From an uncultured Lentisphaeraceae bacterium (GTDB taxonomy: Bacteria; Verrucomicrobiota; Kiritimatiellia; RFP12; UBA1067): a stretch of 14,258 nucleotides of DNA. A program made the translations under genes and the position numbers. A model generated the notes under the pieces. It made no database searches. It was not told the origin of the DNA and worked only from the letters and a program-made list of their open reading frames with translations. The stretch is from the NCBI GenBank assembly GCA_964434815.1, contig CAYSXF010000018.1:1-14258 (forward strand), in the 5' to 3' direction. Shown here one piece after another: positions 1,296-14,258 of the stretch (its first letter is position 1; each line of letters starts with the position of its first letter).

Positions 1296-4200
1296 TTGCG
1301 CATGACACCTTTTGATATTCTTGTTCTGACGGCGGCGAACGAAGCGCAGGCGGACGGCTACCGGGCACAGTTGGCGTGGCGGCAGGCGAACGGCTTGCTC
1401 GACCCGGCCACGCGCGTGCTCGTGATCACGGATCCCGGCGGGCGGCGAGTGGGGTCCCTCGGCGCGACGCTGAACGTGCTGGCCGTGTTGGCGGATGAGA
1501 ACGGAGGCCGGAGATCAGAGGCCAGAAGCCGGAGAGAAAAGTCCGACCTCCGACCTCCGACCTCCGACTTTCAATCTCTGTTCGAAGGCAAGCGCATCCT
1601 GATTTGCCACTCGGGCGGCGACAGCCGCCGCACGCCGGCTTACGCGGCGCAGGGCAAAGTCTTCACGCCCGTGCCGACGGTCGCGGCGAACGGTGTACCG
1701 CTGGCGCTCTTCGATCTCATTCTGCGCACGGTGCAGGAGCTGCCCGTGCCTGCGGCGGGGCATGTGCTGGTCACATCCGGCGACGTGCTGCTGACCTTCG
1801 ACCATGCGTCGGTCGATCTCTCGCGGCCGGGTGTCACAGGCGTGGCGTACTTCGGGCCGGTCGAGCGGGGGTCGCGCCACGGCGTGTATGTGCCTGAGAA
1901 TTTCCGCTCAAACCCGCTGGGGACGGAGTGCGTGCCGGTGATCGATTTTCTTCAGAAGCCCTCGGAGACCGAGGCGCGAGCATGCGGCGCGGTTGACCCC
2001 TTTGGCCACGTGGCGGTGGATACTGGACTGGTGAGCTTCGATCCTGCGACCTGCGCGAAGTTGCTGGAGGTGGCGGGATGGAAGGGGAGGAACGCCCAAC
2101 GCTCAACGAATAAAGGGATAACAAAAAAAGGCCTGCTGGCGGAAATCATCGACGGCTCCTGCCCTGCGTTGGACCTCTATGAGGAGCTGACCATGGCGGT
2201 GACGCCGCGCTTCGACGAGGCGCGTTTCCTCGAACGTTTCGTGGGCGGGCGCGGGCGCGACGCTGCGCACGGCCGCCGGATGAGCGCTTTCTACCGCGCG
2301 ATGCGCTCGGTTCCGTTCCAGGTGAACATCGTGCCGTACTGCGAGTTCTTCCACATCGGCAGCAGCCGCGAGCTGCTCTCCGGTTTCTCCGGACTCTCGC
2401 GCACGGCGCAGGAGTACCGCTTCGCCAACGGCAGCGGCGCGTGCGTGACAAGCGGCGGCGAGACTGGCCGCGCGTTCGTATTCAACGCACGCATCGCCTG
2501 TGCGCTCAAGACCGGCACCGCGCTCATCGAGGCGGTGCATGCCGCCGAGTGCCCGAAACTGGAGTTGGAGGGCGATAACATTCTGACGGGCCTGCCGCCC
2601 GAAGCCAAAGTGGCCATATGGTTGGCTAAAGGAATCGGGCTGGTATGTCTGCCGATCGGCAAAGCAGAATGGGCGGTCATCGCATATGGGATCGACGACG
2701 ATTTCAAGACGCCGTTCGGCGGCGGCAAGCCGTGCCTTTTCCTGAACCAACCGATCGAGTCCTGGATGGCTCGCAACGGTGTGGCCGAGGAGAAGCTTTG
2801 GCAGGGCGACCAGAAGGACGGCCTGTGGCGCGCGCGGCTGTGGCGCGTCGGCGCGCTGGACGACGTGTTGGCCGAGGCGGTCGTTGTGGGGCGCGGCGAC
2901 GGGTGGACCGACGGCGTGCGGGAACGCCGGGCCAGCATCGCCGAGCTGCTGCCGCGCGTGAACCACGACCGGCTGCTGGCGGTGCGACAGGAGATCCGGC
3001 GGCAGGTGAATCTGATGCGCGTCACGGAGCGGCTGCTGGCCGACGACGCGTTGCCCGCTGCGACCGTCTGCGGCGAGATCCAAACGCCGGACGAGGCCGC
3101 GCTTGTTCTGAGGCAGCTTGCGCTTCTGCTCGAAGGGGTGGCTTTCGACAAGCCGCTGTTGCGCGCGCGCGTTCTGCGCCTCGCGGCCATGATCCAGAAT
3201 GGAAAGCAGAAGCCGGAGGGCGGAAGTCGGAAGTCGGAACGGGGGACAAAGATTGCTGAGTTGCCGATCTCCGACCTCCGGTCTCTGACGTCTGATCCCC
3301 AGGCGGCAGCGTTCGCGGCCGTGTCTGAAGCGGTGGCCGTGAGCTTCGAACCGGCGGATAAGCCGCGCCCGGCGGCGATCCTGCACGATCAGGTGGTCTG
3401 GGTGACCACGCCCGTGCGCATCGACTTCGCGGGCGGCTGGTCGGACACGCCGCCGATCTGCACCGAACAGGGCGGCACGGTGCTGAACGCGGCGGTGACG
3501 CTCAACGGGCTCTATCCCATCCAAGTGATTGCCAAGCTCAACACGTCGGGGTGCATCCGCCTCTCCAGCATCGATCTGGGCGAGCGCAAAGAAATCCGCA
3601 CCACGGCGGAGCTGCTCGACCACCGCGATCCGCACGACTGGGCGGCGCTGGCTAAGGCGGCGCTGATCCTCGCGGGCGTCGGTCCGTCGCGCAAGGATGA
3701 GCTGCTCGGCAAGTGGCTGGAAGTATTGGGCGGCGGGCTTGATCTGACCATTTTCTCTTCGCTGCCCAAAGGCTCGGGCATGGGCACGAGTTCGATTCTC
3801 GGCGCGGCGGTGATCGCCTGTCTCGACCGCGTGTTCGGCGTGCCGTTCAACACGGACCGGCTGATCCGCATGACGTCGATTCTGGAGCAGCGCATGTGCA
3901 CGGGCGGCGGGTGGCAGGATCAGGTGGGCGGCATCATGCCGGGCGTGAAGCTGATCCGCACCCAGCCGGGAACCGACCAGACGGTGGCGTTGCGCTGGAC
4001 GGTTTTCGACATGTCCGAGGCGAGCGAGCTGAAGCGGCGCTGCCTGCTCTATTTCACAGGGCAGAAGCGCATGGCGCGCAACATCCTCCAGAACGTCGTG
4101 AACGGCTATCTGGCGCGCGACCCGCTCGTGCTGCAGACCGTGCGCGATCTGAAGGTGTCGGCGGTCGAGACCAAAGAGGCGCTCGACGCGCAGGATATCG

Positions 4201-4484
4201 ACGGGTTCGCGCGGGGCATCGCGCGGTATTGGGAACTCAAGAAGCAGATCGATCCGGGATCGACCAATGCGCCGATCGAAAAATTGCTGAAGTCGGTCGC
4301 GCAGGAGACGCAGGCGGCGCTGCTGCCCGGCGCAGGCGGCGGCGGCTTTATTTTCATGCTTGCAAAGAGTGCGGCGGCGGCCGCGCGCATCCGGCGCACG
4401 TTCGAGGCGAACCCGCCCAACGCCCACGCTCGGTTCTTCGACTTCGGCGTGGATCAGCAGGGGCTGAAGGTAACTGTACTGTAG
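1296..4484 (+). CDS. fkp: Bifunctional L-fucokinase / L-fucose-1-phosphate guanylyltransferase (Fkp-like). N-terminal fucokinase-family nucleotidyltransferase domain, C-terminal GHMP-kinase domain.
   Basis: N-terminus DILVLTAANEAQADGYRAQLAWRQ...RRVGSLGATLNVLAV resembles the fucokinase-family N-domain (cf. human FCSK IVLTCQHKDS.../VGSGGATLNALLV). C-terminal GHMP motif LPKGSGMGTSSILGAAVIACL and VRIDFAGGWSDTPP. Long, gap-free ORF of 1062 aa. Confidence 0.8.
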   Translation: MRMTPFDILVLTAANEAQADGYRAQLAWRQANGLLDPATRVLVITDPGGRRVGSLGATLNVLAVLADENGGRRSEARSRREKSDLRPPTSDFQSLFEGKRILICHSGGDSRRTPAYAAQGKVFTPVPTVAANGVPLALFDLILRTVQELPVPAAGHVLVTSGDVLLTFDHASVDLSRPGVTGVAYFGPVERGSRHGVYVPENFRSNPLGTECVPVIDFLQKPSETEARACGAVDPFGHVAVDTGLVSFDPATCAKLLEVAGWKGRNAQRSTNKGITKKGLLAEIIDGSCPALDLYEELTMAVTPRFDEARFLERFVGGRGRDAAHGRRMSAFYRAMRSVPFQVNIVPYCEFFHIGSSRELLSGFSGLSRTAQEYRFANGSGACVTSGGETGRAFVFNARIACALKTGTALIEAVHAAECPKLELEGDNILTGLPPEAKVAIWLAKGIGLVCLPIGKAEWAVIAYGIDDDFKTPFGGGKPCLFLNQPIESWMARNGVAEEKLWQGDQKDGLWRARLWRVGALDDVLAEAVVVGRGDGWTDGVRERRASIAELLPRVNHDRLLAVRQEIRRQVNLMRVTERLLADDALPAATVCGEIQTPDEAALVLRQLALLLEGVAFDKPLLRARVLRLAAMIQNGKQKPEGGSRKSERGTKIAELPISDLRSLTSDPQAAAFAAVSEAVAVSFEPADKPRPAAILHDQVVWVTTPVRIDFAGGWSDTPPICTEQGGTVLNAAVTLNGLYPIQVIAKLNTSGCIRLSSIDLGERKEIRTTAELLDHRDPHDWAALAKAALILAGVGPSRKDELLGKWLEVLGGGLDLTIFSSLPKGSGMGTSSILGAAVIACLDRVFGVPFNTDRLIRMTSILEQRMCTGGGWQDQVGGIMPGVKLIRTQPGTDQTVALRWTVFDMSEASELKRRCLLYFTGQKRMARNILQNVVNGYLARDPLVLQTVRDLKVSAVETKEALDAQDIDGFARGIARYWELKKQIDPGSTNAPIEKLLKSVAQETQAALLPGAGGGGFIFMLAKSAAAAARIRRTFEANPPNAHARFFDFGVDQQGLKVTVL
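1542..1569 (+). repeat. Heptanucleotide tandem repeat (TCCGACC)x4 inside the fkp CDS; encodes the low-complexity linker SDLRPPTSDF
   Basis: tccgacc tccgacc tccgacc tccgact read directly. The repeat unit is 7 bp, so it is not a multiple of 3. Confidence 0.9.
3207..3283 (+). repeat. Second low-complexity insert in fkp. Same 12-mer CAGAAGCCGGAG as at 1523-1534, followed by (CGGAAGT)x2+CGGAAC (3221-3240) and the inverted partner TCCGACC TCCGGTC (3270-3283)
   Basis: cggaagtcgga and tccgacctccg are near reverse complements (1 mismatch), giving an imperfect hairpin with a ~30-nt loop. 12-nt identity with segment 1523-1534. Confidence 0.8.
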
Positions 4485-4989: not shown

Positions 4990-5787
4990 TTACACATGCA
5001 CAGCGGCAGGCGTGCGGCGCGCGAACTCGGCGGCGAAGGCGCGGTAAGCCTCCGCGCCCTTGCTGGACGGATCGTAGAAAACGACCGGCTTGCCGAAGCT
5101 CGGTGCCTCGCTGATGCGCACGTTGCGCGGAATCACGGTTTCGTACACCTTGTCGCCGAAGTGGGAGCGGACCTCCGTCACCACGTCAGCAGCGAGGCGC
5201 GTGCGCCCGTCGAACATGGTCATGAGGATGCCCTCTAGTTGCAAGCCGGGGTTGACGCCGTTGTCGTGCAACTGGTTGATCAGCGAGGTAATCACGCTCA
5301 GCCCCTCCATGGCGTAGTACTCGCACTGCATGGGCACCACGACGGCGTCGGCCGCCGCGAGCGAGGAGGTCATGAGGATGCCGAGCGAGGGCGGGCAGTC
5401 CATGAGCACGTAGTCGAACACGCCTGCGGTGAGCACGCGGTCAAGCACGTTGCGCACCACCGCGAGGTGGTTCTCCGTCCGGGCGATCTCGATTTCCGCG
5501 CCCGCAAGGTCGAGTTCTGAGGGGATGATGTTGATGCCCTCGTACGGCGTGGCCTGGATGATGTCAGCCACGTCGGCGGCACCGGTGAGCACGGGATACA
5601 GGCTGACGCCGGGCTGGCGCTGCAGGCCGAGGCCGCTGGTGGCGTTCGCCTGCGGGTCGAGGTCGATGACCAGCACCGTCTTCTTCAGCTCCGACAAAGC
5701 GGCAGCCAGATTGACCACCGTGGTCGTTTTGCCGACTCCGCCTTTCTGGTTGGCGATGGCGATGACGCGCGAACTCCGTGTGCTCAT
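4990..5787 (-). CDS. parA: ParA/Soj-family partition ATPase (deviant Walker A KGGVGKTTT). No parB follows.
   Basis: VIAIANQKGGVGKTTTVVNLAAAL, DLDPQANATSGLG and C-terminal EAPSFGKPVVFYDPSSKGAEAYRAFA are typical Soj/ParA. Start ATG (5787-5785) overlaps the leuD stop TGA (5786-5784) as ATGA. Confidence 0.9.
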   Translation of the reverse strand: MSTRSSRVIAIANQKGGVGKTTTVVNLAAALSELKKTVLVIDLDPQANATSGLGLQRQPGVSLYPVLTGAADVADIIQATPYEGINIIPSELDLAGAEIEIARTENHLAVVRNVLDRVLTAGVFDYVLMDCPPSLGILMTSSLAAADAVVVPMQCEYYAMEGLSVITSLINQLHDNGVNPGLQLEGILMTMFDGRTRLAADVVTEVRSHFGDKVYETVIPRNVRISEAPSFGKPVVFYDPSSKGAEAYRAFAAEFARRTPAAVHV

Positions 5788-6332
5788 TTCTTAATCATCC
5801 CTATTTCGCGGGCGTAGGCGAACATGCCGCCTGCGGCGATGACCGGCGCGACCGCGCCGACCGGTTTAAGTGCGAAGACGGCGCCGTCCGACAGGCGGGT
5901 GATCGTATTTTTCGCAATGTTCACTTCGGCCAGGTCGCCGGTCTTGAACGCGCCGCACAGGCGCTTTTCCGATTCGAGCGGGAAAATCTCGCCGGTGGCC
6001 ACCGAATTGCGGAAGAAGATGCGCGCGTAGCTCTCCGCCACGACTGCCTTGGCGCCGGCCGCGCCCAAGGCGATCGGCGCGTGTTCGCGCGACGAGCCGC
6101 AGCCGAAGTTGCGCCCGCCAATGACGATCGGGTAGGGCGTGGTGCCGTCGGGGTTCGACGCGTATTTCGGGAAGGTCTCGGGAAGCCCGGCCAGCGCGTA
6201 CGAGCCGAGCTTACGGTACTCTTCCGGAATCGTCGGAACCAGGTTCAGGTAACAGGCCGGGATAAGCAGGTCGGTGTCGATGTTGTCTTCGAGCACGTAG
6301 ACCGGGCCGCGGATCAGGGTGTCTTTTGGCAT
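5784..6332 (-). CDS. leuD: 3-isopropylmalate dehydratase small subunit (LeuD, short type 2). True start is MPKDTLIRG at 6332, not the upstream GTG-extended ORF to 6521.
   Basis: MPKDTLIRGPVYVLEDNIDTD...GGRNFGCGSSREHAP is an aconitase swivel-domain small subunit. SD GGAGAA 5 nt upstream of the ATG at 6332. The upstream extension (MKWWSARPTATSS...) is Arg/Pro-rich junk that overlaps the terminator hairpin. Confidence 0.85.
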   Translation of the reverse strand: MPKDTLIRGPVYVLEDNIDTDLLIPACYLNLVPTIPEEYRKLGSYALAGLPETFPKYASNPDGTTPYPIVIGGRNFGCGSSREHAPIALGAAGAKAVVAESYARIFFRNSVATGEIFPLESEKRLCGAFKTGDLAEVNIAKNTITRLSDGAVFALKPVGAVAPVIAAGGMFAYAREIGMIKK

Positions 6333-6344
6333 AACGGTTCTCCG

Positions 6345-6377
6345 AAAAAAGGGAGGGCGGGCACGGAGACCCGCCCC
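6345..6377 (-). terminator. Intrinsic-terminator-like hairpin between leuC stop and leuD start. On the minus-strand RNA: GGGCGGG-UCUCCGUG-CCCGCCC then UCCC-UUUUUU.
   Basis: Perfect 7-bp GC stem (6355-6361 / 6370-6376), 8-nt loop, and an A6 run at 6345-6350 that is a U6 tract on the transcribed strand. It is immediately followed by the leuD RBS and ATG. Confidence 0.5.
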
Positions 6378-6381
6378 AACG

Positions 6382-7671
6382 TCACACATCGCGGGGATCG
6401 GTGATATGGCCGGTGAGGGCTGACGCCGCTGCCGTGTAGGGCGAGGCGAGGTAGATCTGCGAATCCTTTGAACCCATGCGTCCGATGAAGTTGCGGTTGG
6501 TCGTGCTGACCACCACTTCATTCCCGTGCGTGCGTCCGAAAGTGTCGATCGGCCCGCCCAAACAGGCCGCGCAGGAAGGCGGGGCGATGGGCTCGACGCC
6601 CGCCGCCTCGAAGATCGCGCGCAGGCTCTGGCCGTCGATCTTCGTGTCGACGAGGCCCTGCTCGACCTGCCGCGTGGCAGGCACCAGCAGCGTGCGCACG
6701 GCCACTTTGCGGCCCTTCATGATCTTCGCCGCCATGACGAAGTCCTCCAGCTTGCCGCCGGTGCAGGAGCCGATGTAGACGTGGTCGATCTTCACATCGC
6801 GGCACGTGCGCGCCAGCGCCTTGTTGTCCGGCAGGTGAGGCTTGGCCACGACTGGCTCGAGCTTGGAGACGTCGTAGCGGTACTCGCTCGCCACCTTGGC
6901 GTCCGGGTCGCTGTACAGCGGCTCGAACGGCTTCCGCGTGCGGGCTTTGACGTAGGCGAGCGTCTTCAGGTCAGGAGCGATGATGCCGTTCTTGGCCCCG
7001 GCCTCGACCGCCATGTTGCAGATCGTGCAGCGCTCCTCGATGCTCAGGGCCTCGATGGCCGAGCCGGTGAACTCCATGGCGCAGTAAGTCGCGCCGTCCA
7101 CGCCGATGTCGCCGATGATGTGCAGGATCAGGTCCTTGGCGGAAAGGTACGGGGGCATCTCGCCGTCCAGCACGAAGCGGATCGTCTGCGGCACCTTGAT
7201 CAGCAGCTTGCCGGTGCCCATGATGAAGCCCGCGTCGGTGTTGCCGATGCCGGTCGCGAACGCGCCGAGCGCGCCGTGCGTGCAGGTGTGGGAGTCCGTG
7301 CCGAAGATCGTCTCGCCGGGCCGCACGTGCCCGAGTTCCGGCAGGGCCACGTGGCAGACGCCGCAGTAGCTCGCCGTGCCCGGATCGTAGAAGTAGGGCA
7401 GGTGCTGCTCTTTGACAAACGCGCGCAGCGTGTCGACGTTGCGGTGGGCCTTCACGTCCTCGGTGTAGATGTAGTGGTCCGGCAGGATGACGATCATCTC
7501 GGGGTCGAAGACCTTGGCGTCCTTGCCGAACTCGCGCTGGAAGATGCCGATGGTCCCCGGCCCGCAGACGTCGTGCGTCAGCAGGATGCCGCAGTTGACC
7601 CAGATGTTATCTCCGGGGGAGATCAACTTCGCGCCCGACTCGCGGGCTAGGATTTTTTCAGTGATTGTCAT
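6382..7671 (-). CDS. leuC: 3-isopropylmalate dehydratase large subunit (LeuC, ~430-aa archaeal/type-2 LeuC/homoaconitase family)
   Basis: MTITEKIL..., aconitase-family motifs (GIFQREFG, DSHTCTHGALGAFATGIG, GSCTGG, STTNRNFIGRMG). Directly upstream of leuD on the same strand. Confidence 0.88.
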   Translation of the reverse strand: MTITEKILARESGAKLISPGDNIWVNCGILLTHDVCGPGTIGIFQREFGKDAKVFDPEMIVILPDHYIYTEDVKAHRNVDTLRAFVKEQHLPYFYDPGTASYCGVCHVALPELGHVRPGETIFGTDSHTCTHGALGAFATGIGNTDAGFIMGTGKLLIKVPQTIRFVLDGEMPPYLSAKDLILHIIGDIGVDGATYCAMEFTGSAIEALSIEERCTICNMAVEAGAKNGIIAPDLKTLAYVKARTRKPFEPLYSDPDAKVASEYRYDVSKLEPVVAKPHLPDNKALARTCRDVKIDHVYIGSCTGGKLEDFVMAAKIMKGRKVAVRTLLVPATRQVEQGLVDTKIDGQSLRAIFEAAGVEPIAPPSCAACLGGPIDTFGRTHGNEVVVSTTNRNFIGRMGSKDSQIYLASPYTAAASALTGHITDPRDV

Positions 7672-7778: not shown

Positions 7779-8495
7779 TTATCCCCGTCCTTGCACCAAT
7801 TTAAAAAAACGGTCTTGGTAATGCTCGAAAAGCCCGTTGTCTTGCAGCAGCTTGCCGAGCGACTTGACCAACCCCGGGTCCTTCGCGGCGGCTTGGAAGC
7901 CTTTCTCGATCTCTTCGCGCAGCCCAACGGGAATCCCATCCTGCATCTCGAACATGCGGCGCTCGTGCAGCTCGCGGATGTTGGCCTGGGCCGAGTTCTG
8001 GATCACCGTCCAAAAGAGCCGCACCAGGCAGACGTCCCACGGGTCGTCCACGCCCTTGATCACGGCGGCGAACGGGTCCTGCTTGGTGGTCACTTCCAGT
8101 TTGACGCGCTCCAGCACGGCTTCTGCGGTGTCGGTGAGCACCTGCTCGCTGAACGCCTCCTGCTTGAGCGTGTAGCCGTAGCGCAGGATGCGCACCGTGT
8201 CCTCGTGCTCCTTCAGCCATTCAAGGTACTGCTGGGCCTGTTCGCCGAAGCCCTCCAGCATCAGCGTCGAATAGGATGAGGGCGTGATGATCTGCGGCCG
8301 CAGCGCCTGCATGCGGCCCTCGCGGACGCGCACCTTCCCGATGGAGTCCATCAGCTCGCTCACCATGTGGTAGTTGATGATCGTGTTGCCGAAGGTCTCG
8401 ATATGGCGCTTGGGCGGCACCACGATCTCCGTGTTGTTGACGGCGAACCAGAAATCGAATTGTGAGGGTCTCTTACTCATGTCAAAGGCAAACAC
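7779..8495 (-). CDS. Conserved hypothetical protein (238 aa, no family recognised). Start is GTG at 8495 or ATG at 8480.
   Basis: Uninterrupted ORF with non-repetitive, acidic/aromatic composition unlike the Arg/Ala-rich antisense artefacts. Packed between dtd and leuC on the same strand. No convincing SD for either start. Confidence 0.55.
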   Translation of the reverse strand: MFAFDMSKRPSQFDFWFAVNNTEIVVPPKRHIETFGNTIINYHMVSELMDSIGKVRVREGRMQALRPQIITPSSYSTLMLEGFGEQAQQYLEWLKEHEDTVRILRYGYTLKQEAFSEQVLTDTAEAVLERVKLEVTTKQDPFAAVIKGVDDPWDVCLVRLFWTVIQNSAQANIRELHERRMFEMQDGIPVGLREEIEKGFQAAAKDPGLVKSLGKLLQDNGLFEHYQDRFFKLVQGRG

Positions 8496-8519: not shown

Positions 8520-8987
8520 TCACGATGGCGCGGAAGGCGAATTATCGGTCCGCAACTCGACCGTCACCGGGCCGTCGTTGAGCAGGCGGACCTTCATCTC
8601 TGCTCCGAAGACGCCGGTGCCGACGCGGCCCTCTCCGAGCGTCTGGCGGAGCTGGCGCACCAGTTCGTTGTAGAGCGGTTCGGCGTGTTCGGGCCGCGAG
8701 GCCTCGATGAAGCTCGGCCGGTTGCCCTTCTTGGTATCGGCATAAAGCGTGAACTGCGAGACCACGATCACCGACCCGCCGATGTCCGCGACCGACTTGT
8801 TCATCAGCCCCTGCTCGTCCTCGAAGATCCGCAGGGCCGGGATCTTGCGCGCCAGTTTTTCAACGTCTGCCAAACCGTCGCTATGCGTGATGCCGAGCAG
8901 GATCAGGAGCCCGCGGCCGATCTCCGAGATGATCTGTCCGTCGACTTCGACCGAGGCTTCGGAGACTCTCTGAATTAGCGCTTTCAT
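8520..8987 (-). CDS. dtd: D-aminoacyl-tRNA (D-Tyr-tRNA(Tyr)) deacylase
   Basis: [17 protein letters not shown]..., SQFTLYAD and NDGPVT motifs. ~150 aa, as expected for Dtd. Confidence 0.9.
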
Positions 8988-9004: not shown

Positions 9005-9186
9005 TAGTCACTGGTCACTAGTCATTGGTCATTGGGAAGTAGTCATTGGTCAACACACGTGAATGCTCCATTTCCGATCAGGTGTACCAGTGACCAATGA
9101 CCACTGACTCCTACTACTGACCAGTGACCAATGACCACTGACTCCTACTACTGACCAGTGACCCGTGCCTACTGACTACTGACCTT
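9005..9186. repeat. Complex intergenic repeat. Left arm has three direct GTCAYTGGTCA words (9007-9017, 9021-9031, 9042-9052). Right arm has a 34-bp tandem repeat x2.6 (9087-9120, 9121-9154, degenerate 9155-9186) built from the reverse-complement words TGACCAATGAC / TGACCAGTGAC. The last unit extends into the final 5 codons of the upstream CDS.
   Basis: Read directly. There are 11-bp perfect inverted repeats, GTCACTGGTCA (9007-9017) against TGACCAGTGAC (9118-9128, 9152-9162). Period between tandem copies is 34 bp. Confidence 0.85.
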
Positions 9187-12100
9187 CTTCCACACGCGCA
9201 GCAGCTCCGATACGCCCCACGCCTGCGCGCCGCAGCCGCGCGATACGTGCGGCTCGTCGCCGTCGCAGATCTCTGGCGTGTGACCTAAGCAGCCGGTGTT
9301 CACGAGCTCTACCGCCGACCCGAGCAGCGAGAGACCGGTTGAACGCGCGGCCTTGCCGTACACCTTGGCCAATGCCTCAACATACAAAGGGAACTGCCAC
9401 GTCCACGCTGTGCCGTTGTGGTAGGCGGGCTTGCGCCGCGTATCCTCGTCGCCCAGATAATGCGCCTGATACGGCCGGTGCGGGTCGTTCAGCAACACGC
9501 CGTCGCGCCACACGCCCATGTCCGCCAGCACCGGACGGTCGGCCAGACTGCGGATCGCGCCCGGCACGAGCAGGCATTCGCAGGCTCGGATAATCGACAC
9601 CTCCAGATCGCGGTCGGTCAGCACGCCGAGCGTGACGGCCAGCAATTGGTTCGGGCGCAGCGCGTCCTCTTGTTCGGCCTTCTCGGCGGGAACGCCCGGT
9701 GCCGCGCGCAGGCAGTCGGCGAGCCAGCCTTCCTTGACGATGAAGTAACGCGCCAGCGAATCTGACGCCTGGTCGGCCAGCGCGCCCCACGAAGCGTCGA
9801 TTTTGCGTGCCACGAGCCGCAGGCTGGCGATCCACAGCGCCTGAATCTCCACAGGATAACCTTCGCGCGGTGTCGCGGCTGGATAGTTGGTGTCCATCCA
9901 TGTGAAGTGCGGCGGGCTGTAGATGAGCCCGCTCTGGACATCCATATGGATCCCGTTGGGAGTGCCGTCGCGGTAGTGCGTGACGATCGAAACCAGCACT
10001 TCGCGTAACGTCCGCTTGCCGCAGGTCGCGTTGAGCACCGTATCGTCGTCGCCCGCCGCCATCAAGTCGCCTGCCGCCACGCAGAACCAGAGCGGCGCGT
10101 CCGACGTGTCGCGGTTGGCGTCGTCGTTGCCGCGGATCATATTGGGGAGCGTGCCTTGATGCTCGAAACGCCCGAATTCATTGAGAATCGCCAGCGACTC
10201 GCTGAACCGCCGGTCCGCGATCAGCCCGCGCAGAACGATGAGCGTGTCGCGTCCCCAGTCCAAAAACCATGGATAGCCCGCGATCACGGTGCGCAGCGCG
10301 TCGCGCCGCACCACGTAGAGCGACAAGGCCTGCGACAGCGCCTCGGGCAAGGCCAGAAAACCCTCCGCACTTCGCTCCCCCGAGGGTCGAGTGTCGAGCG
10401 TCGAGCGTCCGTCCTCCTTCGCCCAGCAGTCCTTCCGTGCCGCGGTCAGCGCAACTTTCTGCGTGCCCTCCAGCGGCAGTTCGAACCAGCCGGGACTGAA
10501 GAGGTCGCCAGCGCTGTCGAGGCCGCGCTCTTTCTCTTCGGGGTGGGCGACCATATAGGCCCAGTTCGGCTCGTGGTGGTAGCGGCCGCAGTCGGTCTCA
10601 AGGCTGAGGGTCTCTCCGCCTGCAGGCGTGAAAGTGAAACCGGCATCCGCAGCACACGTCGCCTCGGGCCACGCCCGTTCAGGGCCGAGGAAGGCTTTGG
10701 TTTTCTGATGGAAGCTGCGCCATTCGATGTCGGGCCGGACGATCACGGTCACCGCGTCATGCGGGTCAAGCCCGCCCGGTCTTTGATGGCGCGCGATGAC
10801 AAGACGCACGCGGTTGACGCCTTCTGCGATCTCGAGCCGGAACGTGAGCGGCACCCAGCAGCCCATGCCGCACGGCACTTTGAAAGACCACTCGGCGAAG
10901 CTCCCTCCGGGATCGGCCTCGAACGACGCGAGGCAGGCGGCGTTGATCTCCTGAGAATAGCCGCGGTGACGCAGCCAGGCGCGGCAGCGCGTCCAGAAGA
11001 TCATTTTTTCGACCGGCACCTTCGCGTCGGGATTGACGGCCAGCAGGCAGTCGTACTGGCTGCGGATCTCGCCCCAGGCCGCACGCACCTGCGCCATGGC
11101 GCCCGCGCCGTTCGACAGCACGGCATACGGACTGCCTTCCTTTCGCACCTGCACGCCGCTGACGCGCGTCAGGATGCGCGCGGCGCCGGCGGGAGGCAGC
11201 ACCAGAAGCGGCGTGGAGTCTCGCCGGATACCCTGCGGCGTGTAGATCGTGGTGACCAGCGAGCGGTGTTCGGCGCGGGTACCGCCTAACGACGGATCGT
11301 ATGGGTCGACCACGAGGAAGGCACCCCACTGGCCGTCGTCGAACAACACGGACGTTTCGGTCGTCAGCGTCCGCTCGCCCACCGTCATCGAAGCGTCGAA
11401 AGGATGTTCGGCACGCACCAGCAGCAGGTGACCCTCGGGAACCATCACCTGTCGGCGGGTGTCGGTCGGCCATGTCCAAACCGTGCGTGCGGGAAGCCCG
11501 CCGTCCTCACGTACGCAGAACGCGTCGGGATCGGCAACCATTGCAGCGCCCAGCGTGTCGGGGTCGCCCTCGAACGGCAACCGAGTATCGGGGTTGCCGG
11601 ATGCGAGTGCAAGCCTGACGCGCATGGACATCAGGTTGCGGCGGCGGAGAGCGATGGCGGCGGGCTCGCGTTCGGCTGAAAGAGGTGTCGCGGCGAAGCG
11701 CGTCCGATCCGTGCGCTCGATGTCGTCCGAGTCGCGCGTGAGGCAGCAGACGCGGCCGGGGCGCAGGCGCAACTGGCCGCGGGGGGAGAGCGCGAACGCT
11801 TCGCCGGACAGCAGGTCCCACGCCACAGGCGCGTCGAAGGCCTCGGTGTTCCAGTGTACCGTCTGGCTGTGGTCGCAGTCGAAATTCACCAGCACGAGCA
11901 GGGCTGTGCCGTTCGGGGCCTCGCGCCGCACCGCGATCACCGCGCCCTCGCCGTGCTGCACGAGGCGCAGGTGCGTGCCGGGCCCGAAGGCCGGGTGGCT
12001 GGCCAGTAGCGCATTCAGCCGCGCGATCTCGCCCACCTGGTTGCGCTCAGCGTCCCAGTTCAGCCCTGACGCGCCGTGCACTTCGATCTTCTCGGTGGCG

Positions 12101-13446
12101 AACCACTCCACGCCGTTGGAGATGCCGAAGCCGCCCTGGTGCGACAGCAGGGCTGAGAGCGCCACCCGCATGCGGGCGTAGGTCTCGCCGCGTGCGGCGA
12201 GGCGGTTGTTGTCGTGCGTCTCGGCGAAGTGGACCAGCGGGCCGCAGCGCTCTGCCAGCGGGATGGCGCGCGGCAGATACCACTCCATCGCACCGCGGTC
12301 CTCGGTCTGGAAAAGCTCGGAATAGGCCCAGTCGAGGTTGGCCTCGGTCAGCAGCGCCTCGGTCACTTCGACTTTGCCGCCCAGGCCTTCGAGCAGAAAG
12401 ACAGTGTCAGGATATTCCTCGCGCACGCGGGCCACAATATACGTCCAGATCTCGGCGGGGATCATGTAGCCCGCGTCGCAGCGGAAGCCGTCCACGCCTT
12501 GGCGGCACCAGAAAAGGAAGACGTCGGCCATGTAGGCGCGCAGGCGCGGGTCGCGGTAGTCCAGCTCCACCAAGTCGGCCCAGGTCACGCCCCACGCGCC
12601 GGGCGAGACGAACTGGCCGTCCGGCTTGCGGCGGTACCAGTCGGGGTGGTGCGTCTGCAGCGTGGCAGCCCAGCCGGTATGGTTGGCTGGCAGGTCCATG
12701 AAGAGGTAGCCGGCGCGGCTGTGGACTGCGTCGATCAGCTCGCGGAACTGGTCCAGCGGCGTGGCGCGCGAGTCGAACTCCGCCAGCGCGGGATCGACCG
12801 AGAGAAAGTCCAGCGCCGCAAACGCCGAGCCGAAGCGACCCATGCGCGCGAAAGTGACGGGCGTAGGGTGGACCGGCAGGAGCTGAACGATGCGGAAGCC
12901 CAAGGTCCCCATGATGTGGCCCAGCTTGCGGACCACGTCGCGGAACGAGCCGGAGGGCGGCAGCACGGTGTAGCCCAGATGGTCCAGCTCGCGCTCCTTG
13001 TCGCGGATCGCGTCCGTGCGCGGGTTGTGATGCAGCGACGCGCCGAACTGGCGCACGAAAGCGGTGTACATCGTGTTTGCGCACGCGGTGTGGGCCGGCT
13101 CGACCTTGATGCGCAGGTTATCGCCCTCCGGCCATTCGGGGACGCCGGAGCCGTGGGCGAAGAAGCAGGCCTTGCCCGCGAAGATGCCCACCTGCGTGAG
13201 CGGGATGCGCACGCTGAAAAGGCCCGGCGCGGTCTCGCGCATCGGCACGTCGTGCCAGTCGCGCGCCAGCGCCGGCTCGCCGGACTCGGTGCAGGCGATG
13301 ATCTCCTGGCGGCGGATAGGGGCCTGGCCCAGATTGGTGCGGAACACGGCGCGGCCTTTGCGCAGCACGCCAAGGCGCAGGCTGACCTCGAACAGATCGC
13401 CTGCCCATTTCAGATGAAAACTGCCGGGCTGTGGGGTATGGTGCAT
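9169..13446 (-). CDS. Giant alpha-glucan-active fusion protein. N-terminal GlgE-like (GH13) maltosyl/glucanotransferase domain, plus a central beta-sandwich, plus a C-terminal amylo-alpha-1,6-glucosidase (GDE_C, GH133-like) domain. Probable start is ATG at 13446; the ORF track extends to ATG at 13521 through AT-rich promoter-like sequence.
   Basis: GH13 regions present: DLPANHTG (I), GVDGFRCDAGYMIP (II), VFLLEGLGG (III), FAETHDN (IV). Overall pattern closely parallels GlgE (VQLLPVHPTP.., HPDWYRRKPDG vs HPEWFHHRPDG, the NALLASHPAF...LVLVNFDCDHSQ tail). C-terminal GYPWFLDWGRDT, HNGTAWTWQFP and GCGAQAWGVSELLRVW are hallmark GDE_C motifs. Nt 13447-13563 is ~43% GC against ~65% in the CDS. Confidence 0.8.
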   Translation of the reverse strand: MHHTPQPGSFHLKWAGDLFEVSLRLGVLRKGRAVFRTNLGQAPIRRQEIIACTESGEPALARDWHDVPMRETAPGLFSVRIPLTQVGIFAGKACFFAHGSGVPEWPEGDNLRIKVEPAHTACANTMYTAFVRQFGASLHHNPRTDAIRDKERELDHLGYTVLPPSGSFRDVVRKLGHIMGTLGFRIVQLLPVHPTPVTFARMGRFGSAFAALDFLSVDPALAEFDSRATPLDQFRELIDAVHSRAGYLFMDLPANHTGWAATLQTHHPDWYRRKPDGQFVSPGAWGVTWADLVELDYRDPRLRAYMADVFLFWCRQGVDGFRCDAGYMIPAEIWTYIVARVREEYPDTVFLLEGLGGKVEVTEALLTEANLDWAYSELFQTEDRGAMEWYLPRAIPLAERCGPLVHFAETHDNNRLAARGETYARMRVALSALLSHQGGFGISNGVEWFATEKIEVHGASGLNWDAERNQVGEIARLNALLASHPAFGPGTHLRLVQHGEGAVIAVRREAPNGTALLVLVNFDCDHSQTVHWNTEAFDAPVAWDLLSGEAFALSPRGQLRLRPGRVCCLTRDSDDIERTDRTRFAATPLSAEREPAAIALRRRNLMSMRVRLALASGNPDTRLPFEGDPDTLGAAMVADPDAFCVREDGGLPARTVWTWPTDTRRQVMVPEGHLLLVRAEHPFDASMTVGERTLTTETSVLFDDGQWGAFLVVDPYDPSLGGTRAEHRSLVTTIYTPQGIRRDSTPLLVLPPAGAARILTRVSGVQVRKEGSPYAVLSNGAGAMAQVRAAWGEIRSQYDCLLAVNPDAKVPVEKMIFWTRCRAWLRHRGYSQEINAACLASFEADPGGSFAEWSFKVPCGMGCWVPLTFRLEIAEGVNRVRLVIARHQRPGGLDPHDAVTVIVRPDIEWRSFHQKTKAFLGPERAWPEATCAADAGFTFTPAGGETLSLETDCGRYHHEPNWAYMVAHPEEKERGLDSAGDLFSPGWFELPLEGTQKVALTAARKDCWAKEDGRSTLDTRPSGERSAEGFLALPEALSQALSLYVVRRDALRTVIAGYPWFLDWGRDTLIVLRGLIADRRFSESLAILNEFGRFEHQGTLPNMIRGNDDANRDTSDAPLWFCVAAGDLMAAGDDDTVLNATCGKRTLREVLVSIVTHYRDGTPNGIHMDVQSGLIYSPPHFTWMDTNYPAATPREGYPVEIQALWIASLRLVARKIDASWGALADQASDSLARYFIVKEGWLADCLRAAPGVPAEKAEQEDALRPNQLLAVTLGVLTDRDLEVSIIRACECLLVPGAIRSLADRPVLADMGVWRDGVLLNDPHRPYQAHYLGDEDTRRKPAYHNGTAWTWQFPLYVEALAKVYGKAARSTGLSLLGSAVELVNTGCLGHTPEICDGDEPHVSRGCGAQAWGVSELLRVWKKVSSQ
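10386..10410 (-). repeat. Heptanucleotide tandem repeat (GTCGAGY)x3 within the giant CDS; encodes the low-complexity segment TLDTRPS
   Basis: gtcgagt gtcgagc gtcgagc gtcc read directly. Confidence 0.85.
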
Positions 13447-13563
13447 AATTTGCTGCTCGATAAATTCGAGCGATTCGAGTCTCGATTCCATCGATTGAAT
13501 CGATTTGTTCGACTTTACCATATCCCTTAGAGCGCGTATACTGGCACTTTTACAGGAAAAAGC
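13447..13563. promoter_or_regulatory. AT-rich divergent control region between the glucan-enzyme gene and metF. Three TCGATT motifs at exact 9-bp spacing (13482, 13491, 13500) plus GCGATT at 13470. Candidate metF promoter TTTACC (13514-13519), N17, TATACT (13537-13542). metF SD is AGGAAA.
   Basis: GC drops to ~43%. The periodic motif is tcgattcca tcgattgaa tcgatttgt tcgac. The -35/-10 spacing was counted by hand. Confidence 0.4.
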
Positions 13564-14258
13564 ATGATCTTTTACGAAAAATTACAAAACCATACGCCGA
13601 CGGTCTCTTTCGAGTTCTTTCCGCCCAAGACGCCGGAGGGCTGGGCCAAACTCTACGCCACCATTGCTGAGACCGCACGGCTGAATGTGGATCTTGTCTC
13701 CGTCACCTACGGGGCTGGCGGCAGCACGCGCGAGAACACGGTCGACCTGGTCGCCTCGCTGCAGAACAACCTCGCCCTTCACGCTATGGCGCACCTCACC
13801 TGCCTGGGACACTCGCAGGTGGATATCTCCAAGATCCTCGACAAATTGGCCGCGAAGCAGGTGCCGGCCGTCATGGCGCTGCGCGGCGACCCGCCCCAGG
13901 GCGAGACCGCCTTCCGGCCGCACCCCTATGGCTTCGCCCACGCCAGCGACCTGATCGGCTTCATCCGGGACGGCTGGCCGCAGTTCAAGATCGGCTGCGC
14001 GGCATATCCCGAAGGCCACCCCGAGGCGTTCGCACCCGGCGAAACCCGCACGCCCGACCGCGACATTGCGTTCCTCAAGCTGAAACAGGACAACGGCGCG
14101 GACTATGCGGTGACGCAGCTCTTCTTCGACAACGCCGTCTACTTCGCGTTCGTGGAAAAGGCGCGCGCGGCCGGCGTGACGCTTCCGCTCTTGCCGGGCA
14201 TCATGCCTCTGACGTCGGCTAAGCAAATCGAGCGCTTCATCGCGCTCTCCGGCTGCTC
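13564..14258 (+). CDS. metF: 5,10-methylenetetrahydrofolate reductase (MetF), 3'-partial because it runs off the window end. It is missing from the ORF track because it has no in-window stop.
   Basis: My own translation from ATG 13564 gives MIFYEKLQNHTPTVSFEFFPPKT...SVTYGAGGSTRE...HLTCLGHS...ALRGDPPQGE...AAYPEGHPEA...VTQLFFD, classic MetF motifs with no stops to 14258. SD AGGAAA sits 5 nt upstream. Confidence 0.88.
   Translation, partial: MIFYEKLQNHTPTVSFEFFPPKTPEGWAKLYATIAETARLNVDLVSVTYGAGGSTRENTVDLVASLQNNLALHAMAHLTCLGHSQVDISKILDKLAAKQVPAVMALRGDPPQGETAFRPHPYGFAHASDLIGFIRDGWPQFKIGCAAYPEGHPEAFAPGETRTPDRDIAFLKLKQDNGADYAVTQLFFDNAVYFAFVEKARAAGVTLPLLPGIMPLTSAKQIERFIALSGC

Follow-up and report, generated by a model that had tools for sequence, protein, structure and literature searches.

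Bacterial glycogen breakdown is classically assigned to the phosphorylase GlgP, the direct debranching enzyme GlgX and MalQ. In eukaryotes, the glycogen debranching enzyme (GDE, also AGL or Gdb1) combines an N-terminal GH13 4-alpha-glucanotransferase module (GH13_25) with a C-terminal GH133 amylo-alpha-1,6-glucosidase on one chain, and residues D1078, D1241 and E1492 of the C. glabrata enzyme (CgGDE; 5D06) are required for its glucosidase activity (PMC4837477). According to a review, single-chain enzymes that debranch in two steps are regarded as a eukaryotic feature, with the bifunctional archaeal TreX as the one exception (PMC11046441). Prokaryotic GDEs were listed only as short two-domain GDE_N–GDE_C proteins in a 2014 phylogenomic survey (PMC4236520), and the review reports that excess glycogen accumulated in an archaeal GH133 knockout (PMC11046441). 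The present analysis was carried out on a 14,258-nucleotide (nt) stretch of DNA from an uncultured Lentisphaeraceae bacterium (contig CAYSXF010000018.1), hereafter the window, and addressed a single ATG-to-stop open reading frame (ORF) of 1450 amino acids (aa) on its minus strand (9169..13521, stop codon included). The encoded fusion protein consisted of an N-terminal beta-sandwich, a GH13 module, a helical linker, a GDE_N beta-sandwich and a GDE_C/GH133 barrel. On balance, the protein probably debranches glycogen (alpha-glucan) in the cytosol as a bifunctional enzyme, which would perform two steps on one polypeptide in the manner of GDE/AGL and would have been assembled independently of it.

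The domain make-up was evaluated via Pfam, structure models and residue conservation. Alpha-amylase (PF00128) matched aa 191–354 (E 2.5e-9, 37 bits vs a cut-off of 22), GDE_N (PF12439) matched aa 802–1023 (E 7.4e-21, 75 bits vs 27) and GDE_C (PF06202) matched aa 1070–1442 (E 1.7e-62, 212 bits vs 21). No signal peptide or membrane segment was found in the fusion protein. Conservation was read from an alignment of the query and 39 full-length homologues (40 sequences, 47–95% identity), in which the motifs quoted here were invariant or nearly invariant. The motifs named by the first-pass annotation, namely FRCD (D349), LLEG (E378), ETHD (D437), the DAGY after the nucleophile and, on the GDE_C side, GYPWFLDWGRDT (D1092) and HNGTAWTWQFP, were all present in the ORF. 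Its central statement, that a GH13 module with an intact catalytic site and a complete GDE_N/GDE_C module lie on one polypeptide, was upheld by the Pfam matches and the conserved catalytic residues.

The AlphaFold2 (AF2) model of the N-terminal half had a predicted local distance difference test (pLDDT) score of 84.6 and contained the GH13 barrel. This catalytic (beta/alpha)8 barrel, whose domain B is short, spanned aa ~186–510 (11992..12966; all features of the fusion are on the minus strand) according to Pfam, phmmer, AF2 and the conserved motifs. Conserved sequence regions (CSRs) were located at DLPANH (CSR-I, ending in H281), DLVELDY (CSR-V), GFRCDAGYMIP (CSR-II, with D349), FLLEGLGG (CSR-III, with E378), FAETHD (CSR-IV, ending in D437) and NGVEW (CSR-VII). 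The module was placed in GH13 by its (beta/alpha)8 barrel, regions I–IV and Asp/Glu/Asp triad. D349 (codon 12475..12477), the predicted catalytic nucleophile, E378 (12388-12390) and D437 (12211-12213) were aligned with D394, E423 and D480 of the maltosyltransferase GlgE, which are its catalytic residues (PMC5076824). The three residues were invariant in 40/40 sequences, and H281, R347, C348, A350 and H436 were invariant as well. The GH13 domain C beta-sandwich followed at aa ~515–597 (11731..11979), with AF2 strands at 517–595, a GlgE alignment reaching residue 591 and a weak Amylosucrase_C-like Pfam match at aa 525–592. The linker between the enzyme modules (aa ~598–678; 11488..11730) had no family match and was helical, with helices 599–610, 621–639 and 654–668 in both AF2 models. 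Pfam searches at E<=10 on the N-domain (aa 21–190) and on the linker (aa 590–810) gave nothing usable. Close to the GH13 active site, the loops aa 221–237 (12811-12861) and aa 308–314 (12580-12600) were modelled with pLDDT below 50 and keep many invariant residues (SPGAWG.xW; G228, G231). By analogy with domain B of GlgE, both loops may form a mobile lid.

The C-terminal model (aa 608–1450, pLDDT 89.8) showed a short helical linker, a beta-sandwich and an (alpha/alpha)6 barrel. The large beta-sandwich covered aa ~679–1030 (10432..11487), including GDE_N at aa 802–1023, and the GDE_C/GH133 amylo-alpha-1,6-glucosidase module covered aa ~1055–1450 (9172..10359); both were delimited by Pfam, AF2 and Foldseek. 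The Foldseek matches to this model were GH94 phosphorylases, the C. glabrata GDE and GH15-like, GH116 and GH63 enzymes, all of which share the (alpha/alpha)6 plan. GDE_N and GDE_C scored above their Pfam gathering scores, and the beta-sandwich and (alpha/alpha)6 fold were both seen in the model, which places this half in GH133. D1078 of CgGDE was paired by phmmer with D1092 (WGRD; 10246-10248), and D1241 with D1210 (TWMD; 9892-9894). These two residues and E1417 (9271-9273) were invariant and are the active-site candidates, of which E1417 (PEICDGD) would be the equivalent of CgGDE E1492 by inference only. A phmmer search of aa 708–1450 against PDB returned nothing at E<=1e-3; the PDB matches for the C-terminal half came from the family profile and from shorter queries. 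The C-terminal ~770 aa shared the architecture and motifs of the prokaryotic archaeal-type GDE (GDE_N–GDE_C, TIGR01561; GH133). In contrast to that enzyme, the fusion adds ~680 aa made up of the N-domain, GH13 and the helical linker, and it stayed below the cut-off of TIGR01561 (gde_arch; 142.7 vs 364.15 bits, matching only aa 962–1383).

These modules suggest a division of labour. In the first step, the GH13 module would act as a retaining enzyme, with D349 as the nucleophile, E378 as the acid/base and D437 as the transition-state stabiliser, on the alpha-1,4 bonds in the short outer stubs remaining at branch points after alpha-glucan phosphorylase has acted. The outer malto-oligosyl unit would most likely be transferred to another chain end, its hydrolytic release being less likely, and the stubs would be cut down to a single alpha-1,6-linked glucose. 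In the second step, the GDE_N/GDE_C half would hydrolyse this leftover glucose via D1092, D1210 and probably E1417, and the two sites may be coupled. The enzyme would do the job of eukaryotic GDE/AGL and would take the place of GlgX in bacterial glycogen operons.

The gene context was explored by clustering the ORFs of 88 related loci within +/-10 kb, and downstream genes were counted in those species-representative loci whose downstream flank reached at least 3 kb (59 loci). In 17/59 loci, the strand of the fusion carried a downstream gene for an alpha-glucan phosphorylase (TIGR02094, 784 bits), and in most of the 17 no other large ORF lay in between; a GlgA-type synthase and a branching-enzyme homologue were each found downstream on that strand in 19/59. 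Hence, the fusion headed a same-strand cluster of fusion, alpha-glucan phosphorylase, GlgA and branching enzyme (17–19 of the 59 loci), and the loci with this cluster belonged to Desulfobacterales, Kiritimatiellales/Pontiella and Lentisphaerae. Unrelated genes bordered the cluster at all four clusters whose borders were annotated, and none of glgX, malQ, treS or mak was seen at these four. Among the 88 loci, treS and mak were not recurrent neighbours; genes for glgP, the GlgA-type synthase and glgB recurred and were the only neighbours to do so across phyla. The position of the phosphorylase after the fusion suggests that chains are shortened by phosphorolysis and not by hydrolysis. Where it is clustered, the fusion holds the place of the debranching enzyme in a glycogen operon. 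GlgX/TreX (GH13_11) shares this presumed role and this operon position beside glgB, glgA and glgP, as exemplified by E. coli glgBXCAP.

Eukaryotic GDE is likewise a partner of phosphorylase, and it shares with the fusion the order of an N-terminal GH13 and a C-terminal GH133 glucosidase on one chain and the active-site aspartates of WGRD and TWMD. Eukaryotic GDE was matched to the C-terminal half by Foldseek with E ~1e-13 to 3e-14. By contrast, hGDE_N, hGDE_amylase and hGDE_central gave no Pfam match at E<=0.01, TIGR01531 reached 18.3 bits against a cut-off of 1399.55, and the profile match to GDE spanned only ~100 residues. Moreover, the barrel of the fusion is preceded by a prokaryotic GDE_N sandwich, and its GH13 module is of a different lineage. 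Because the hGDE domains were missing and TIGR01531 was far below its cut-off, the sequence evidence indicates that the fusion was assembled independently of eukaryotic GDE, in agreement with the origin that the first-pass annotation had proposed. The fusion does not explain how eukaryotic GDE arose, since the GH13 parts are not orthologous.

An artefact was considered, in which two neighbouring genes would have been fused near nt 11700 by chimeric assembly or by read-through; a mis-join at this position had been named in advance as a possible refutation. No evidence favouring a chimera or read-through was found. The identical 1450-aa protein occurred on three contigs, two of which were read and came from separate ENA and JGI samples. 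The G+C content was even over the supposed join, and both models predicted the linker as helices with confidence. From an index of 5.8 billion proteins, at least 120 clusters at 90% identity were obtained, with 50–92% identity to the query, and nearly all of those listed were full-length with all three Pfam domains. In species-representative genomes (one genome per GTDB species), at least 590 stretches encoded relatives, and 79 of the best 80 were aligned across nearly the whole query with 45–80% identity. Furthermore, 53 of the first ~80 representatives in a 50%-identity library had a length of at least 1300 aa. The probability of an artefact is thus negligible. Kiritimatiellia, Lentisphaerae/Victivallales, other Verrucomicrobiota and Desulfobacterales (Desulfosarcina, Desulfonema, Desulfatitalea) were the hosts among the best 80 stretches, and the hosts of relatives included one Pontiellaceae isolate. 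The fusion therefore occurs in hundreds of anaerobic bacterial species and is not a rarity; thousands of such proteins are already in public databases, auto-named by NCBI as 'amylo-alpha-1,6-glucosidase' or 'glycogen debranching enzyme N-terminal domain-containing protein'. Two loci with the fusion, L015 (CAZOMH010000654.1) and L039 (CAVAHB010000074.1), were labelled as contigs of Nitrospirales and Faecalibacterium metagenome-assembled genomes. Both are short contigs far outside the other hosts and may be mis-binned.

The first-pass annotation had described the GH13 module as GlgE-like. GlgE (GH13_3, EC 2.4.99.16; 3ZSS, 4U33) shares its overall fold and the domain order of N-domain, A/B and C. 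In GlgE, the phosphate of maltose-1-phosphate is coordinated by N352, K355, Y357 and N395 (S. coelicolor numbering), and the maltosyl group is kept in subsites -2/-1 (PMC4526890). In the phmmer alignment to 3ZSS, these four residues were paired with A309, V312, W314 and A350, which cannot coordinate phosphate, and A309, W314 and A350 were invariant in the family. The -2 subsite residues K264 and N268 were paired with M227 and G231. The fusion thus lacks the four phosphate-binding residues of GlgE as well as its lysine and asparagine of subsite -2. The loop part of this mapping is less certain because aa 308–314 were modelled at low confidence, and the equivalence of N395 and A350, which adjoins the nucleophile, is secure. 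Moreover, the Pfam GlgE_dom_N_S and GlgE C-domain models had no match, even at E<=10 on the N-terminus, and none of the NCBIfam GlgE models matched the fusion protein. Some members of the family (P0043, P0096, P0099) are named 'starch synthase (maltosyl-transferring)', i.e., GlgE, by JGI, and judging from the residues this naming is probably a mis-annotation. A true GlgE, in which a maltose-1-phosphate-dependent GH13_3 maltosyltransferase is joined to a debranching enzyme and elongation is coupled with trimming, is therefore very improbable. The gene clusters, with their GlgA-type synthase and neither treS nor mak at the four with annotated borders, argue in the same direction. Because the four phosphate-binding residues are replaced, maltose-1-phosphate is unlikely to be the donor, and the earlier suspicion that the change from DNPH to DAGY may accompany a different donor was upheld by these replacements.

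The nearest relatives of the module were found outside GlgE. The phmmer E values were 1.3e-26 for 3DHU, 1.4e-21 for 4GKL and 2e-13 for GlgE (3ZSS), and the family-profile scores were 115, 87 and 77 bits, respectively. 3DHU (L. plantarum) and 4GKL (T. neapolitana AmyB) define the recently created subfamily GH13_48, whose enzymes are exo-acting and release maltose (PMC11239784). By sequence, the module is nearer to these exo-maltogenic amylases than to GlgE, so that the D/E/D triad and the fold of the initial GlgE-like assignment stood, whereas GlgE as the nearest group did not. The hallmarks of GH13_48 are a Cys right before the nucleophile (GxRCD), a CSR-V ending in L-[DN] and a CSR-VII ending in G-Q; the usual architecture is a bare A-B-C, and exceptions to it and to the CSR-VII G-Q exist (PMC11239784). 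The Cys was present as GFRC(348)D(349) in 40/40 sequences, and the CSR-V hallmark was present in DLVELDY. The pairing of FRVDNPH in GlgE with FRCDAGY in the query hence reflects a subfamily difference rather than a mutated GlgE, because the module is closer to GH13_48; the altered GlgE that DAGY had seemed to imply was not borne out.

These relatives also bear on the mode of action. In a hydrolytic tandem, outer chains would be hydrolysed to maltose in an exo-maltogenic, GH13_48-like manner, and the GH133 half would remove the branch glucose with no transfer. This alternative is rather unlikely, yet it is the most serious one. It is favoured by 3DHU and 4GKL being both the best sequence matches and exo-acting maltogenic amylases (PMC11239784), and by the shared GxRCD cysteine and CSR-V L-D. 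However, the identity to 4GKL and 3DHU was only ~17–22%, and the module departs from the GH13_48 logos in CSR-VII, which is N-G-V-E (V471 in 39/40) and not G-Q, and in CSR-II, which continues with AGYM where GH13_48 has VAxL and differs from GH13_49 as well. The fusion also has an extra, GlgE-like N-terminal beta-sandwich, the module was always fused to GH133 among the matches listed, and phosphorylase follows the gene where it is clustered. The release of maltose from four-glucose stubs would leave two-glucose stubs, which GH133 is not expected to cleave. Maltosyl binding at a chain end, common to GH13_48 and GlgE, fits an enzyme acting on short stubs, as in the preferred two-step debranching.

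Because the GH13_48 hallmarks are shared and CSR-VII and CSR-II deviate, the module is best described, from its sequence, as a GH13 lineage of its own, intermediate between GH13_48 and GlgE, and it is likely to be a subgroup without a CAZy subfamily. In a representative library of 1.84 billion proteins, 199 representatives matched the module at E<=1e-30, and all 150 of those listed belonged to the fusion family or its fragments. Four module matches of ~570–700 aa were inspected and look like truncated or frameshifted members. Among the matches listed, the module thus seems to exist only within the fusion, which suggests a mutual dependence of both modules.

A different alpha-glucoside or alpha-glucan substrate, such as imported maltodextrin, pullulan fragments or the product of a GT4 glycosyltransferase, is improbable. 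Such a substrate would suit the position of the gene away from glycogen genes in the clade of the window, the overlap of the gene with the end of a GT4 pair in the P0096 lineage, and the many polysaccharide-degrading genes nearby in Kiritimatiellia, e.g., sulfatases. It is opposed by the lack of a signal peptide, by glgP, glgA and glgB as the only recurrent neighbours across phyla, and by the GDE_C members with functional data, which act on glycogen.

Several points weigh against two-step glycogen debranching itself. Among characterised GH13 enzymes, those nearest in sequence are hydrolases and not transferases, and it is not obvious how a maltosyl pocket would leave a single glucose from a four-glucose phosphorylase stub. 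A search of the last 89 aa against eukaryotic GDE for an equivalent of CgGDE E1492 gave only spurious zinc-finger matches. The N- and C-terminal halves were modelled separately. The glycogen cluster was found in only ~30% of the assessable loci, the negative result for glgX and malQ covers only the four clusters with annotated borders, and in the clade of the window the neighbours of the gene are of the housekeeping kind (metF, dtd, leuCD-like, parA) and are not glycogen genes. For prokaryotic GDE_N–GDE_C proteins, the survey stated that there was 'no direct experimental evidence' at its time (PMC4236520). In the literature search, no paper was found that describes an Alpha-amylase–GDE_N–GDE_C protein or tests its activity, and the first 300,000 of the 445,374 characters of a 2024 Chem Rev review made no mention of the three-part architecture.

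In the window and its close relatives, the gene lay between divergent metF and dtd, followed by a conserved 233-aa ORF, leuCD-like aconitase-family genes and parA; these neighbours say nothing on the function of the fusion. The divergent metF/MTHFR gene (methylenetetrahydrofolate reductase; 13564-14258, plus strand, running past the window end) was assigned by gene callers and by Pfam at the syntenic locus L086, and it was absent from the ORF listing since the window ends within it. The ATG of the fusion at 13521 was only 42 nt from the metF start at 13564. Homologue alignments to the ORF mostly opened at residues 20–30, and residues 1–25 were covered by few homologues (P0032, L031). Met26 (codon 13444-13446) may therefore be the true start, which would give a protein of 1425 aa. 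The D-tyrosyl-tRNA deacylase gene (8520-8987, minus strand) was directly downstream of the fusion, and the conserved ~233-aa ORF (7779-8495, minus strand) had no Pfam match; both were syntenic in L081, L082 and L086. Genes for the large and small subunits of an aconitase-family enzyme (LeuC/LeuD-like) occupied 5784-7671 on the minus strand. The small-subunit ORF as listed (245 aa, 5784-6521) overlapped the large subunit, and its start is internal because gene callers give 182 aa. On the plus strand, an ORF of 1062 aa (1296-4484, TTG start as listed) contained fucose pyrophosphorylase and GHMP kinase N and C domains and looks like an Fkp-type bifunctional L-fucokinase/GDP-fucose pyrophosphorylase. 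In the P0096 lineage of Kiritimatiellia, two GT4 genes were located directly upstream of the fusion (7666-10004 in L083; also in L084 and L085), and the second overlapped the fusion start by 4 nt. The best NCBIfam matches of this pair, to the MSMEG_0565 family and to the Corynebacterium-type GT4 glycogen synthase, scored well under the respective cut-offs. The pair was rejected as a general partner, as it did not recur across loci.

A broader evolutionary reading is offered tentatively. Anaerobic bacteria of the Planctomycetes–Verrucomicrobia–Chlamydiae (PVC) group and Desulfobacterales may have invented a eukaryote-style 'indirect' debranching independently, from an unclassified GH13 lineage found only in the fusion, and it may have replaced GlgX (perhaps MalQ) in their glycogen operons. 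The family also flags mis-annotation: the name is GlgE/'starch synthase (maltosyl-transferring)' for some members and simply 'amylo-alpha-1,6-glucosidase' for others. If the proposed activity is correct, the family would offer a first entry to the function of prokaryotic GH133 proteins beyond one archaeal knockout. It would also represent a second, independently assembled solution to two-step debranching, carried by hundreds of species that are important in anoxic sediments, the rumen and the gut.

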